From: a virus
DNA: 19,147 bases
Reading direction: 5' to 3' (one strand)
UHGV virus genome: UHGV-0126495
A model generated the notes under the pieces. The model was not told the DNA's origin and ran no database searches. It saw only the letters and a program-made list of their open reading frames with translations. The position numbers and the translations under genes were made by a program. Below, piece after piece: positions 1,834-6,237 of this stretch; positions within the stretch are counted from its first letter, which is position 1, and each line of letters begins with the position of its first letter.

Positions 1834-2931
1834 TTAGAACTGGTAAACCATACCGACAGCAACAATATCGTCGGTGTTTATACCAAGACCTCTGGTGAAA
1901 TCATTTTTGTCAAGCAGGTTGATTTTGTAATCAACGAAAGTAGACATATTTTTGTTGAAGTAATAGGTTGCGCCTACATCAACATATTTAACTAAGTCTT
2001 GATCGCCCCATACTCCGAGATCTTTACCTTTAGATTGCAGGTAAGCCACGGACGGACGCAGCCCAAAATCGAACTGATATTGTGCAACAGCCTCAACGTT
2101 CTGAGCTTTATTAGCGACGAAGCGATCAGCAAATACCGTCATATTCTGGGTTTCAGAATAGGTAGTGGCCAAGTAAATGTTGTTAGCGTCATATTTCAGA
2201 CCAGCGGCCCAAACTTCTGCATTTTTACCGGAAGCAAATACTCCAGGAAGAACTTTCCCTAGATTAACTTGAGTGTCGGTACGGTCAGATTTCGCATAAG
2301 TTGCACCAATACCGAATCCTTCGTATTCATAGGTAGCAGAGAAACCGAAGCCATCACCGTTACCTTCGGTATAGTTATCGAGATCGCTACGATCGTTTTT
2401 GCCTTGGTACTGAGCAGCAAAGTTCAGACCATCAACCAGACCGAAGAAGTCGTTATTACGGTAAGTTGCAACACCAGTTGCACGCTGAGTCATGAATACG
2501 TCGGTTTGAGTCCAAGTATCACCACCGAATTCTGGCAGAACGTCAGTCCACGCACCGATGTCGTATGCTACACCGTAGTTACGGCCATAATCGATGGAGC
2601 CGTAGTCACCGAATTTCAGGCCAGCGAAGGCAAGACGGGTTTTATCTTTGGAAGAACCTTGAGATTCAGCACGGTTGCCTTTGAATTCATATTCCCACTG
2701 ACCGAAACCAGTCAGTTGATCATTGATTTGGGTTTCGCCTTTGAAGCCCAGACGAGCATAAGTTTTGTCACCATCGTGTTTATCGTTAGAGGAGAAGTAG
2801 TGCTTGGCATTAACTTTTCCGTACAGATCCAGTTTGTTGCTGTCTTTGTTATAAATCTCTGCTGCCTGAGCAGACATCGCCATTAATACTGACGCAGCTA
2901 CAGCAGAGATTGCCACTGTTAATTTTTTCAT
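1834..2931 (-). CDS. nmpC: outer membrane porin, OmpC/NmpC/Lc family (prophage-borne lysogenic conversion porin)
   Basis: 365-aa minus-strand ORF with signal peptide [23 protein letters not shown], mature N-terminus AEIYNKD and C-terminal ...VYQF typical of general porins; recalled as very close to E. coli NmpC / phage PA-2 Lc. AGGA 7 nt upstream of the ATG. Convergent with Q, as in DLP12. Confidence 0.9.
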
Positions 2932-3175
2932 CGTGAATCCTTAGTCCTTTTCGGAACTATTATTAAAAAATATTGTCACTGCGGCCTAAATATACATCTA
3001 ATCGGTATGGCTATTTCAAGATATGGAGTTTATTTAATGGTTCAAAGTGTGATCAAGATCTCGTTTATGCGTACTGGTAATTATTGATTGACGATGTTTT
3101 TGTAATGAGAGATGCGTTTCTGAAATGCAATGAAAAGTTATTGTTTTTGTATTTTATAATGTAAATTTTTTGCGT
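2932..3175 (-). promoter_or_regulatory. AT-rich porin upstream region with candidate sigma70 promoter and OmpR-box-like motifs
   Basis: Read on the minus strand: TTGAAA (plus coords 3014-3019), about 17 bp, then TGTATATTT, followed by a roughly 60-70 nt leader. Further upstream TTTACATTATAAAATAC and GAAACGCATCT resemble OmpR-binding boxes of ompC/ompF. Confidence 0.35.
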
Positions 3176-3180
3176 GCTGG

Positions 3181-3194
3181 TTTACGTACGTAAA
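3181..3194. promoter_or_regulatory. perfect 14-bp palindrome TTTACGTACGTAAA (candidate operator)
   Basis: Exact palindrome read directly; overlaps a possible -35 (TTTACG) with TATGAT at 3203-3208 sixteen bp downstream, upstream of the 3265 ORF. Confidence 0.3.
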
Positions 3195-3264
3195 AATTTA
3201 AATATGATGTTAAGAGTGGTCACTTTGCCACACAGCTTAAACCAGCCGCCAAACGGGGTTTTTT

Positions 3265-3573
3265 ATGCCCGAAAAGCGGCGCAGTACGTTAAACGCGCTG
3301 GTGGTTGCGAATACCGGTCTTTCAGCTTGCTGGCTTTTTCGACAAGAGTTATTGGTATGTCACGTTAACCGGAATAAGGGAAAAAGACATGCTAAAACAG
3401 CAGGATATGACCGAAACCGTAATGAATTAAGCGTCACCGAGCCGGCGACCGTCGGGGAAATTGCGCAGAATACGTACCTTTCACGCGAACGCTGTCAGTT
3501 AATACTGACCCAGCTTGTTATGGCGGGTCTGGCAGATTATCAGTTCGGTTGTTACAGACGCCTTCCTCAGTGA
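3265..3573 (+). CDS. hypothetical small DNA-binding protein (C-terminal helix-turn-helix-like segment)
   Basis: 102-codon ORF; C-terminal ATVGEIAQNTYLSRERCQLILTQLVMAGL looks like an HTH recognition unit. Bracketed by a candidate promoter/palindrome upstream and an intrinsic terminator overlapping its stop. N-terminal half is low-complexity, so the true start is uncertain. Confidence 0.35.
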   Translation: MPEKRRSTLNALVVANTGLSACWLFRQELLVCHVNRNKGKRHAKTAGYDRNRNELSVTEPATVGEIAQNTYLSRERCQLILTQLVMAGLADYQFGCYRRLPQ

Positions 3574-3587
3574 AGGCTTTTTTATTT
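3560..3587 (+). terminator. intrinsic terminator
   Basis: GCCTTC-ctcagt-GAAGGC hairpin (3560-3577) followed by TTTTTTATTT; overlaps the stop codon of the 3265..3573 ORF. Confidence 0.6.
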
Positions 3588-3723
3588 GTGGTAATGGGCG
3601 GCTGGTGGGTGTTAGCGGCACCTGCCAGCCATCTGCTCATGCGTTGGGGTCACAAGCAAACCTCAGGCCCATCTGCTTTGCGCAAAAGCGGAATGAGCCT
3701 ATCAGAGAAGTGCTTATTGATCT

Positions 3724-4770
3724 ATGGCCAATACTGTAAAAATATCCAGTTGTGAGTTAATCAACGCTGATTGCCTGGAATTTATCCAGACCTTACCGGA
3801 AAACTCTGTCGATCTGATAGTCACAGACCCGCCATATTTTAAAGTGAAGCCCGAGGGCTGGGATAACCAGTGGAAGGGCGACGATGATTATCTGAAATGG
3901 CTGGATCAGTGTCTGGCGCAATTCTGGCGGGTACTGAAGCCTGCCGGAAGTCTTTATCTGTTCTGTGGTCATCGCCTGGCATCTGACACCGAAATCATGA
4001 TGCGTGAACGCTTTAATGTGCTGAACCACATTATCTGGGCGAAGCCGTACGGACGCTGGAACGGGTGTAATAAGGAAAGTCTGCGGGCGTATTTTCCGGC
4101 AACAGAACGCATTCTGTTTGCTGAACATTATCAGGGGCCATACCAGCCCAAAAATGACGGCTATGCGGCAAAGGGGCGCGAGCTTAAGCAGCACGTCATG
4201 GCCCCGCTGATTTCTTACTTTCGTGATGCGCGTGAATCACTGGGAATAACGTCAAAACAGATAGCGGAAGCCACCGGAAAGAAAAACATGGCTTCGCACT
4301 GGTTTGGTATCAGTCAGTGGCAGTTGCCGAACGAAGGCGATTATCTGAAATTACAGGCGTTGTTTGCGCGTGTTGCAGCAGAAAAACATCAACGAGGGGA
4401 ACTGGAAAAGCCACACCACCAGCTGGTCAGCACATACAGTGAACTGAACCGGCAATATGCCAGTCTGCTGAAGGAGTACAAATCCCTGCGGCGTTATTTT
4501 TCCGTATCGGCTGCCGTTCCGTATACGGATGTCTGGACGCACAAGCCTGTGCAGTATTACCCCGGCAAACATCCCTGTGAGAAACCGGCGGATATGTTGC
4601 GTCAGATAATTACCGCCAGCAGCCATCCGGGAGATTTGGTCGCTGATTTTTTTATGGGGTCGGGGTCAACAATAAAAGCAGCATTATCGCTGGGAAGGCG
4701 TGCAATAGGTGTGGAACTGGAAGAAGATAGATTTAACCAGACTGTAATTGAAATAAAAAATAATCGTTAA
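3724..4770 (+). CDS. orphan DNA methyltransferase, beta-class amino-methyltransferase (probably N6-adenine; N4-cytosine not excluded)
   Basis: 348-aa ORF with motif IV DPPY at nt 3826-3837 near the N-terminus and motif I FFMGSGST at nt 4648-4671 near the C-terminus (IV before I is the beta-class permutation). No restriction endonuclease candidate nearby. Confidence 0.88.
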   Translation: MANTVKISSCELINADCLEFIQTLPENSVDLIVTDPPYFKVKPEGWDNQWKGDDDYLKWLDQCLAQFWRVLKPAGSLYLFCGHRLASDTEIMMRERFNVLNHIIWAKPYGRWNGCNKESLRAYFPATERILFAEHYQGPYQPKNDGYAAKGRELKQHVMAPLISYFRDARESLGITSKQIAEATGKKNMASHWFGISQWQLPNEGDYLKLQALFARVAAEKHQRGELEKPHHQLVSTYSELNRQYASLLKEYKSLRRYFSVSAAVPYTDVWTHKPVQYYPGKHPCEKPADMLRQIITASSHPGDLVADFFMGSGSTIKAALSLGRRAIGVELEEDRFNQTVIEIKNNR

Positions 4771-4939
4771 ATGTGTGTATCATTATTTCTGCATTTTATG
4801 AATAATAGAAATTTATACATATATTTACGAATATTGACACAGTTTTTAATTGAAAAAGTATCTGTCCTCATTAATATTCTTTTTCGGTTCCGAGGGGGAT
4901 GTAAAGCGCGGTCATTTTTATTTTTCCTGAGGAACCAAT

Positions 4940-5015
<76 letters not shown>

Positions 5016-5018
5016 TAT

Positions 5019-5093
<75 letters not shown>

Positions 5094-5456
5094 GCATTTG
5101 AAATAAGCCTTATTGTATTGCAGCACTGGCGTATTTTTATTACGTGGGAGCAGGTTGTTTTGAAAAAGCATTCTGTTCTCTGGCTATGATTTGAGGCCAG
5201 GTTAGCCTCAGTGCTGATTTTTTTACGGCAGCAGAATGGTGCATTGCTGGTGGAGATTTTGTATTTCCTGGCAGGGTCGGTGATGTATCATTCTGGTGTT
5301 GTAAATAACACCATCGGGGCGCTCCTCAGGGCGAGGGTGGTTAAAAGAGTCGGTTTAGCGGGAAACCACAGTATTCATACAGGACGGAATACTTCGGGAG
5401 GCACCCGACGCCTCGATTTTATTACAATTAAAAAATTCATTCCTTGCATTGACCAA

Positions 5457-5480
5457 CCGCCGTATCTGGCGGTTTTTTTT
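5457..5480 (+). terminator. intrinsic terminator (likely end of the tRNA transcription unit)
   Basis: CCGCC-gtatct-GGCGG hairpin followed by eight T (5473-5480). Confidence 0.6.
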
Positions 5481-5490
5481 ATTCTTAATT

Positions 5491-5526
5491 CGAAAAAAGA
5501 AAACACGGACACTGATAATGTCCGTG
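5491..5526 (-). terminator. intrinsic terminator for minus-strand transcription
   Basis: 8-bp stem CACGGACA / TGTCCGTG (5504-5526) with 7-nt loop; on the minus strand followed by TTTTCTTTTTTCG (plus-strand A-run 5491-5503). Confidence 0.5.
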
Positions 5527-5803
5527 TGGCAATGCCATGTAAGTCAGCGATGAATATGGCGCAAAAAAAGCGCGGCTGTCGGATTAACGCCGCGGGACAA
5601 AGTCCGTGAAGAAGAATAAGTATCGGTCTCCTTCCGGAGACGAGTTGATATTACTAAGCTTTAAAAATGGTTTAAATCCTCAGATTGACCTTAATTTCCG
5701 GTAAGTCTTATTTCATTTTCTCCGCGCTACCTCCAGCGCACATCACATCAGGTAACGCCACACAAAAGGCATCTGCGGGTGCCTTTGACGGGTGTTTTTT
5801 TAC

Positions 5804-5829
5804 GGGCCGCTGGTGGCCCTTTTTTATTT
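5804..5829 (+). terminator. intrinsic terminator immediately upstream of the lysis cassette
   Basis: GGGCC-gctggt-GGCCC hairpin followed by TTTTTTATTT; ends about 15 nt before the AGGAGA ribosome-binding site of the 5845 ORF. Confidence 0.6.
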
Positions 5830-5844
5830 ACAGGAGAAAAAAGT

Positions 5845-6237
5845 ATGTCTGAACCCTTGTCCGGTTCCGGCACGGCTGCGGCGCTCGGCGGGGCGACGGT
5901 ATTCGGGCTGTTTACCGGAACGGATTTCGGGATTGTGTTTGGTGCGTTCGCCGGGGCGTTATTTGTGGCAACGATGCCGCAGGCGCTTTCAGCCTGGCGT
6001 GTGGTGGCGCATTTTCTTGTGTCGTTCATTATCGGCGTGCTGGGCGCAGAGGTTCTGGCGTCCTGGCTGGTAAAGCATACAGGGTTTGACGGTGCACCTG
6101 TTGACGCATTGTGTGCAGTACTGGTGTCAGTGGTGTCGGTGAAGATTCTGTCGTTCATCCACCAGCAGGATATCGCATCACTGGTGTCCGGTCTGTTCTC
6201 CCGCCTGCGGGGCGGAGGAGGCGGCAATGTTAAGTAA
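5845..6237 (+). CDS. putative holin (multi-TM small membrane protein, 131 aa)
   Basis: ATG at 5845 preceded by AGGAGA (5832-5837); the longer listed start at 5779 would read through the terminator. Three to four hydrophobic helices and a charged Gly-rich C-tail; first gene of a lysis-type cluster ending in an endolysin. Confidence 0.55.
   Translation: MSEPLSGSGTAAALGGATVFGLFTGTDFGIVFGAFAGALFVATMPQALSAWRVVAHFLVSFIIGVLGAEVLASWLVKHTGFDGAPVDALCAVLVSVVSVKILSFIHQQDIASLVSGLFSRLRGGGGGNVK

Follow-up and report, generated by a model that had tools for sequence, protein, structure and literature searches.

In phage phiP27 the toxin genes stx2eA/B lie between a pair of tRNA genes and the lysis genes, which raises the question of what takes up this position in a related prophage that carries no credible open reading frame (ORF) there. 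We addressed this question with a stretch of 19,147 nucleotides of UHGV virus genome UHGV-0126495 (the window; one strand, read 5' to 3'), which gene order and sequence comparison identify as the late region of a lambdoid phiP27-like prophage of Escherichia coli. The region concerned, here called the gap, comprises the 751 bases at 5094-5844 and is bounded on the left by a tRNA-Gly gene and on the right by the ATG at 5845 of a holin gene. A first-pass annotation, made from the letters of the window alone, had described it as a terminator-rich interval at the moron position that holds the toxin genes in stx phages, and had proposed a small RNA (sRNA) encoded on its minus strand. By sequence comparison the gap is composed of three putatively non-coding modules, A, B and C, that are conserved as a unit, and we think it rather probable that it represents the cargo of a phiP27-like moron slot, in which RNA genes, arranged as two converging sRNAs with their terminators, stand in place of toxin genes. 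This reading, in which modules A and B are putative and their expression is predicted, draws on conservation, covariation, strand-specific base pairs, synteny and an architecture known from the literature.

The Gap Occupies the Toxin Position of phiP27

The late region of phiP27 reads methylase, tRNA, tRNA, stx2eA/B, L27, holin L28/L29 and endolysin, and the same genes flank the gap, with a methylase, two tRNAs, the cargo, an 85-nt segment before the holin, a holin pair and an M15 endolysin present in both. This synteny confirms that the gap occupies exactly the stx2e position, as the first-pass annotation had supposed. Within the gap phiP27 shares only the last ∼85 bases (5758-5841, 94% identity). 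The two phages differ in their cargo, which in phiP27 consists of stx2eA/B and a small reverse ORF and here of predicted RNA genes, and in their tRNAs, which are Ile and Arg in phiP27 but Thr and Gly in this prophage.

Of 5426 complete E. coli genomes searched by megablast, 458 contain the gap, and at least 215 cover 80% or more of its length, at 80-99% identity. The region is 99.7% identical to that of pig strains of enterotoxigenic E. coli (ETEC) such as ETEC1732. Together with the tRNA pair, the gap occurs beside different Q genes and beside two unrelated lysis cassettes (P27-type and EssD/RrrD-type). About 130 further loci were collected from IMG/VR by exact-pattern scans, and a scan of species-representative genomes with one 26-mer pattern from module A gave Escherichia ruysiae as its sole match.

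A scan of positions 4700-6000 reported 9 terminator-like sites, compared with 1.2 ± 1.1 in shuffled sequences, and the only ORF of at least 60 amino acids in the gap is 5211-5609, in keeping with the earlier description of an interval rich in terminators and poor in credible ORFs. Four sites show the G+C-rich hairpin followed by a U-run that characterizes rho-independent terminators: 5455-5482 and 5804-5825 on the plus strand, and 5527-5493 and 5594-5563 on the minus strand. The last was found by inspection and folding, as loops of 10-12 nt lie outside the limits of the scan.

Module A Is a Putative Plus-strand RNA with an STnc100-like Domain

Module A (5094-5484, plus strand) is predicted to encode a structured non-coding RNA, ∼390 nt long, that follows directly on the tRNA genes. 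Its single-sequence fold has a free energy of -137.6 kcal/mol (z = -5.25), and RNAalifold applied to 42 distinct variants yielded 86 consensus pairs, 15 of which show compensatory double changes. Many pairs are G·U in all or most of the sequences and would be A·C mismatches on the minus strand, which assigns the structure to a plus-strand RNA. The module closes with an intrinsic terminator at 5455-5482 (stem 5455-5474, AACCGCC-loop-GGCGGTT, followed by T8), whose stem is kept and whose loop varies in all variants. A plus-strand terminator had been noted before at 5457-5480; what the first-pass annotation overlooked is the largest element of the gap, the STnc100-like RNA that ends at it.

The variants fall into two length classes, one of 389-398 nt and one of 293-306 nt with a different, shorter 3' domain. 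In the short class (loci L024, L031, L065, L066, L088 and L104) an unrelated sequence of ∼70 nt replaces the STnc100-like domain, and the 5' half and the terminator are retained, which makes the 3' domain of module A an exchangeable cassette. The 5' half contains a long hairpin at 5222-5305, formed by columns 151-186 pairing with columns 192-236 of alignment A4. Its apical part, GGTGGAGATTTTGTATTTCCTGGCAGGG (5249-5276, 28 nt), is without variation; the invariance is by construction in the IMG/VR loci, which were chosen with a 26-mer from this core, and the GGTGGAGATTTTGTATTTCCTGGCAGGG core is likewise identical in all six BLAST-derived sequences, one of them a copy that is otherwise only weakly alike.

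The 3' domain (5297-5484) resembles the STnc100 and PasD sRNAs. The Rfam model of STnc100 (RF02076) matches 5288-5484 on the plus strand with 22.1 bits (E = 0.015-0.026), as against 109-124 bits for canonical STnc100 copies. Since this match is weak, we built a covariance model, R1, from 36 variants of the module A domain and searched in the reverse direction. R1, whose E-values are rough, finds canonical STnc100 at L100:182-355 (40.6 bits, E = 1.5e-8) and at L039:4653-4846 (31.3 bits, E = 3.5e-6), as well as PasD2 at L098:3138-3327 (17.8 bits, E = 0.009), so that profile searches connect the domain with STnc100/PasD reciprocally. In alignment A2 the CGGGAGGCACCCG hairpin (5395-5407), the stem preceding it and the terminator are common to module A and STnc100/PasD; the likeness further includes the plus-strand orientation, the GG..CC form of the upstream stem, the size of the domain and the terminal position of the intrinsic terminator.

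The genomic position agrees as well. PasD and STnc100 have been described as structurally related prophage sRNAs encoded between Q and the holin gene, where PasA and PasC are also placed (bioRxiv 10.64898/2026.05.13.724894), and STnc100 is located 75 nt downstream of stx2 (PMC12370729). Judged by the strand of its terminator T-run, PasD of strain E2348/69 lies on the late-operon strand, and module A is found on the same strand, between Q or the moron and the lysis genes, with its intrinsic terminator at the end. There are differences: BLAST gives no similarity between module A and the PasD loci, and STnc100/PasD follow a DUF3927 gene and have a TTGACT promoter of their own, whereas the module A domain follows a 200-nt structured extension and the tRNAs. 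Module A thus appears to be a diverged member of the STnc100/PasD superfamily. Both types of domain occur in one IMG/VR contig (L039), where a canonical STnc100 (4648-4861, minus strand, 109 bits) and a module A-type 3' domain (3806-3987, minus strand) lie ∼650 nt apart in the same orientation, the similarity to module A beginning only inside the long hairpin.

The position of the TTGACT box of PasD/STnc100 reads GGTGAT in this DNA, and the promoter scan reported no site there. The same scan found a σ70-type promoter (TTGAAA-16 bp-TAATAT, 9 of 12 consensus positions) at 4850-4877 on the plus strand, upstream of the genes for tRNA-Thr(TGT) at 4940-5015 and tRNA-Gly(TCC) at 5019-5093, both on the plus strand and both identified by ARAGORN and by the Rfam tRNA model (72 and 66 bits, respectively). 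Alignment A6 shows that the pattern TTGnnA-16-TAnnAT upstream of tRNA-Thr is kept whether the preceding gene is a methylase or Q-like. With no promoter visible immediately before the STnc100-like domain and a conserved one upstream of tRNA-Thr, we infer that module A is made as the trailer of the tRNA operon.

Several further features of module A were considered. At 5160-5190 there is a possible internal promoter, TTGAAA-19-TATGAT, with a conserved -10 box (TATAAT in three variants), a poor -35 box and a long spacing, and a hairpin with U7 follows the TATGAT box at 5191-5224; the segment 5160-5224 could serve module A as an internal promoter or attenuator, or could terminate the tRNA operon incompletely. 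That the 5' half might be a decayed DUF3927 gene was rejected, as the peptides of its three frames have no Pfam match at E up to 10, and a 15-amino acid ORF in the invariant loop, MVHCWWRFCISWQGR, was set aside for want of a ribosome-binding site.

Module B Is a Putative Minus-strand sRNA with an Invariant Promoter

Module B faces module A from the minus strand. Its predicted promoter (5648-5698) has a -10 box TAATAT at 5648-5653, a 17-bp spacer and a -35 box TTTAAAC at 5670-5676, and can be read as TTAAAC-16-TAATAT or, one base shifted, as TTTAAA-17-TAATAT; an A/T-rich block, AAATTAAGGTcAAT, lies upstream at 5684-5698. Across the 31 distinct variants of alignment A3 the TTTAAAC box, the 17-bp spacing and positions T1, A2, A5 and T6 of the -10 box (TAnnAT) are invariant, and two loci, L023 and L103, have the same boxes although their spacer and the first 45 nt of their RNA are unrelated.

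From a 5' end at ∼5641, set by the position of the -10 box, the predicted RNA runs to ∼5563 (∼79 nt; fold z = -4.5). It would form a hairpin H1 (5626-5641), a C/U-rich single strand CUUAUUCUUCUUCA (5607-5620), a hairpin H2 (5595-5605) and a terminator T1 with a stem at 5571-5594 and a U7 run at 5563-5569. For the 17 pairs of the three hairpins, 96.5% of cells in the 31 variants are paired, compared with 41-54% in slid controls; five pairs have changed on both sides, and none of 500 shuffles reaches the observed value. H1 contains a U·G pair in 23 of the 31 variants that would be A·C on the plus strand, and U-runs follow the hairpins on the minus strand only, two observations that fix the strand of module B as minus. 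The last 45 nt at the 3' end are near-invariant in the 31 variants.

A second intrinsic terminator, T2 (5493-5527, minus strand), would serve as a back-up for T1. Its stem of 11 pairs (5527-5503), reported by the scan, is followed by TTTCTTTTTT as U-run (5493-5502), and covaries between two sequence types (CACGGAC/GTCCGTG versus CACGAG/CTCGTG). In one sequence type the U-run of T1 is interrupted (UACUUUU), which makes a form of ∼150 nt ending at T2 likely there. T2 is missing from L085 and L039. In these two loci and in L108 similarity ends right after the T1 U-run, and in L127 it sets in with the A/T-rich block just ahead of the -35 region; these boundaries delimit a unit of ∼140 bp that consists of the promoter and the ∼79-nt RNA. 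Module B is carried by ∼289 E. coli genomes. No Rfam family matches it at E values of up to 10, and a full-text literature search with 16-20-mers of modules A and B, on both strands and as DNA and RNA, returned no paper.

All that had been proposed from sequence for this strand survives, with some refinement. The promoter candidate TTAAAC-16-TAATAT is present, with the invariance described above, as are the hairpins GTCTCC-TTCC-GGAGAC (5626-5641) and CGCGGC...GCCGCG (5571-5594) and a minus-strand terminator placed at 5491-5526, which is T2. The second hairpin had not been recognized as a terminator, although its U7 run on the minus strand makes it the first stop of the transcript; the predicted length is ∼79 nt to this stop and ∼150 nt to T2. 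The word antisense needs qualifying, as the minus-strand RNA overlaps no gene and would be antisense only to late read-through. Of the checks suggested at the time, folding (z = -4.5) and covariation (96.5% of cells paired, five doubly changed pairs, 0 of 500 shuffles) came out in favor of the proposal, and the Rfam search gave no family for module B and a weak STnc100 match for module A. Far from being poorly conserved or absent in related prophages, the segment recurs in ∼289 genomes with covarying hairpins.

A diverged copy of module B is found on the chromosome of E2348/69, an enteropathogenic E. coli (EPEC) strain, at ∼2138580-2138725 between the tRNA-Ser gene serU and zinT, a region that IMG/VR also predicts to be viral. 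This copy (L103:2495-2641, minus strand) agrees with module B in the -35 and -10 boxes and in the 3' 45 nt with the terminator, but its 5' 45 nt are unrelated. The serU-type variant occurs at nine places among the loci fetched, and partial BLAST matches to the shared 3' part of module B are listed in many other E. coli genomes. No match to the serU-adjacent copy was seen in the parts of the EPEC RNA interaction by ligation and sequencing (RIL-seq) supplements that were searched.

Module C Forms the Leader of the Holin Gene

Module C (5700-5830, plus strand; fold z = -3.7) contains a hairpin Ca (5724-5739), a hairpin Cb followed by a U-run (5766-5785) and a terminator Cc, found by the scan at 5804-5819 and followed by T6, which is the terminator that had been noted before the holin. 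G·U pairs of the plus orientation are conserved in 26 variants, and the module is common to prophages with P27-type and with EssD-type lysis cassettes up to its final T-run. We take the hairpins to be probable terminators that would shield the lysis genes from constitutive transcription arriving from upstream, a reading suggested by the established behavior of lambda Q-modified RNA polymerase, which reads through terminators.

The match to stx2e-bearing phiP27 starts at 5758, which puts a junction of moron exchange near 5757, and in strain P13-6 (L004:3767-4341) a TerB-family gene and a DUF3927 gene are inserted in module C at window positions ∼5745-5757. The 5757 region therefore looks like a preferred point of moron exchange.

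The Shine-Dalgarno (SD) sequence of the holin gene, GGAG, begins at 5833. An anti-SD pairing of UUUUCUCC (5716-5723) with the region GGAGAAAA (5833-5840) was discarded as fortuitous; it appears in a single-sequence fold only, and the upstream partner is not conserved in copy 1 of phage SerU-LTIIb.

Comparison with Known Prophage sRNAs

Using Hfq crosslinking, Tree et al. (2014) found that the moron site downstream of PR' holds convergent sRNA genes in eight O157 prophages, and that the antisense members, AsxR and AgvB, function as anti-sRNAs with a 3' region that is conserved and a 5' region that varies (PMC4104026). The O157 pairs (AsxR/EcOnc02 with EcOnc27 after stx2B, and the AgvB copies) resemble the present locus in lying at the moron site downstream of Q and before the next late gene, in having one sRNA on each strand and in an antisense partner with a constant 3' and a variable 5' part. 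Modules A and B converge in the same manner, with their 3' ends 10-80 nt apart, and module B likewise combines a conserved 3' with a variable 5' region. The differences are considerable. The models of AsxR and AgvB (RF02703 and RF02702) match neither strand here at E up to 10; these sRNAs are 51-60 nt long, whereas module B is predicted to be 79 nt (or ∼150 nt to T2) and to have a 5' hairpin; a protein-coding moron is missing here, where the pair directly follows tRNA genes; and module A has its 200-nt structured extension and module B its tandem terminators.

PasA and PasC of EPEC strain E2348/69 (Pearl Mizrahi et al. 2021; Zhu et al. 2026, preprint) are, similarly, sRNAs of ∼80 nt including a terminator, and PasA, whose strand we deduced from the orientation of its terminator, immediately precedes the holin/lysozyme operon and is encoded against the direction of the late operon. 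The seed of PasA overlaps the terminator stem, but the C/U-rich single strand of module B stands apart, and blastn (word size 7) of the gap against the PasA, PasB, PasC and PasD loci of E2348/69 gave chance matches only. On these sequence comparisons, module A is a diverged putative homologue of the sense partner of such pairs, and module B is a putative analogue of the antisense partner, to which no homology can be detected.

A further parallel concerns the origin of module A. Reportedly, in work by Lalaouna et al. in 2015, the 3' external transcribed spacer of the glyW-cysT-leuZ tRNA operon acts as a sponge for RyhB and RybB. Both RNAs would stem from the trailer of a tRNA operon and be freed by tRNA processing, but module A is ∼390 nt long, highly structured, prophage-borne and equipped with an STnc100-like domain. 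A prophage sRNA of NC-SV, svsR, was dismissed as a counterpart; its gene maps to the 3' end of cI and shows no relation to the gap.

The convergent sRNA-pair architecture is thus one already described in prophages of pathogenic E. coli, realized here with different sequences. The locus would extend the rule of a convergent sRNA pair at the moron site beyond enterohemorrhagic E. coli (EHEC) and EPEC to phiP27-like and Rac/Qin-like prophages, and would contribute a diverged branch of the STnc100/PasD family as well as a candidate sRNA family absent from Rfam. A slot that is as a rule inspected only for toxins or other moron proteins appears to be filled with conserved predicted RNA genes in several hundred E. 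coli genomes, including pig ETEC, the enteroaggregative strain EAEC 042 and ATCC 8739, and genome annotation leaves it blank or places a spurious protein on it. The locus seems worth annotating, though specialists in phage-encoded sRNAs would find it unsurprising.

Proposed Mode of Action and Alternatives

In our working model, transcription from the conserved promoter at 4850-4877 would pass through tRNA-Thr, tRNA-Gly and the ∼390-nt trailer and stop at 5455-5482, and module A would be freed from the tRNA precursor by tRNA-processing nucleases. Both RNAs would be made constitutively in the lysogen, with four terminators and the convergent transcription keeping this constitutive activity out of the lysis genes; upon induction, Q-modified RNA polymerase would pass all terminators, as in phage lambda. 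Analogy with AsxR/AgvB and PasA-D suggests that modules A and B may act in trans, through Hfq, on RNAs of the host or the prophage. The combination of a constant 3' part with an exchangeable 5' part in module B suggests that it may be an anti-sRNA.

Several observations weigh against this model. The promoter of module B agrees with the consensus at only 7-8 of 12 positions and was not reported by the promoter scan, and no promoter is visible to the scan directly before the STnc100-like domain, so that production of this domain relies on inferred read-through and processing. The score of the Rfam match is below half of the STnc100 gathering score of 47 bits. Within the window, complements of the module B single strand occur at chance level only and include no convincing target. 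The homologous loci are mostly closely related E. coli prophages, many of whose variants share ancestry, so that the shuffle controls overstate significance, and since the IMG/VR sets were picked with exact patterns of 18 and 26 bases drawn from the elements, they are biased toward conservation of the cores. Finally, 27 of 43 distinct variants retain intact a 32-amino acid ORF on the plus strand (5606-5704, MKKNKYRSPSGDELILLSFKNGLNPQIDLNFR) that overlaps module B.

The alternative that fares best, though we regard it as no better than a tentative proposal, is that module B acts in cis, its RNA pairing with, or its head-on transcription colliding with, read-through transcripts from the tRNA promoter or PR', and thereby lowering leaky holin expression in the lysogen or tuning the timing of lysis upon induction. 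A cis-acting RNA of this kind would be comparable with oop RNA, which acts on lambda cII. Module B, 200 nt upstream of the holin gene, converges with module A and is fully complementary to any late transcript that crosses it; it accompanies the gap next to two unrelated lysis cassettes, and the search of the window that yielded no trans target fits such a role as well. The diverged copy beside serU, however, shares promoter and 3' part with module B but has no lysis cassette nearby, module B is lacking from many prophages whose lysis genes are the same, and an exchangeable 5' part on a constant 3' part is the pattern of trans-acting anti-sRNAs. The cis action is compatible with the reading of the gap as a moron slot filled with a convergent sRNA pair.

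We find it doubtful that the hairpins are only insulators or recombination scars between exchangeable modules, with no stable functional sRNA on either strand. Such an origin would account for the strong enrichment of terminators, for the exchange junctions directly after U-runs and for modules that come and go independently, module B being missing from SerU-LTIIb copy 2, L008 and L013 and module A occurring with an alternative 3' domain; the weak consensus of the module B promoter would fit too. It does not account for -35 and -10 boxes that stay invariant at a fixed spacing while the intervening sequence diverges, for the covarying structure that extends over ∼300 nt before the module A terminator or for the reciprocal match of module A to a known sRNA family, and the homologous positions in O157 and EPEC prophages yield abundant Hfq-bound sRNAs (PMC4104026, PMC8550237).

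A more elaborate version of the RNA model is one that we also hold to be improbable. In it, module A would be a new, large tRNA-linked RNA that is more than an STnc100-type sRNA, its invariant 28-nt loop having a function of its own (for instance as a sponge, in protein binding or in counter-defence), and module B would at the same time belong to a hitherto undescribed modular family of cassette sRNAs, the serU copy among them, with a fixed promoter and 45-nt 3' scaffold and interchangeable 5' targeting parts.

Coding Potential of the Gap

The remaining alternative, that the gap encodes one or more small proteins, would have to rely on the 32-amino acid ORF or on the 132-amino acid ORF with a GTG start at 5211-5609 (plus strand). 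The Prokaryotic Genome Annotation Pipeline (PGAP) calls the latter a hypothetical protein (WP_064226585.1) in genomes that are 99.7% identical, but calls nothing at 93% identity; in six ETEC genomes the call (L003:6118-6516 in NZ_CP122823) is laid over modules A and B. The ORF crosses two terminators. Among 42 distinct variants, the indels in 5211-5454 comprise 14 of one base, two of two bases and two of three bases, so that the frame is repeatedly broken. Variable columns at the three codon positions (43/74, 49/72 and 48/72) show no periodicity, and between 21 and 97 codons around the conserved core are open depending on the variant, with open frames that vary in all three phases. WP_064226585.1 is most probably a spurious gene call.

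The 32-amino acid ORF begins with ATG in most variants and has GGGA eight bases upstream. Against this, in 16 of the 43 variants the ORF is shifted in frame, shortened or deprived of its start by at least five independent changes that spare the module B promoter and terminator, and between its two main types we counted, by eye, nine replacement and five silent changes, near the neutral expectation. Its intactness elsewhere is probably a by-product of close relatedness. Neither ORF, and none of the conceptual peptides of the gap, has a Pfam match, and a protein-coding role is in our judgment very unlikely.

Neighboring Genes and Related Loci

Upstream of the tRNA operon the window carries the antiterminator gene Q (1261-1644) and a DNA methylase gene (3724-4770). 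Between these two, in reverse orientation, is a gene for an OmpC/NmpC-like porin (1834-2931, minus strand), which represents a second moron of the late-operon leader in an arrangement like that of DLP12 and PA-2. To the 3' side of the gap follow two holin genes, an M15 endolysin, an HNH endonuclease and a P27-type terminase; the first holin gene (5845-6237, plus strand), which forms the right boundary, is annotated by PGAP as 'putative holin' in a 99.7% identical genome.

In the LT-IIb toxin phage SerU-LTIIb (KU052038, L001) the module of tRNAs, gap and holin is duplicated, at 1122-2031 and 3028-3743. In the second of these copies module B is missing and the 5' part of module A has diverged, and the toxin genes of this phage sit 3' of the lysis genes, outside the gap.

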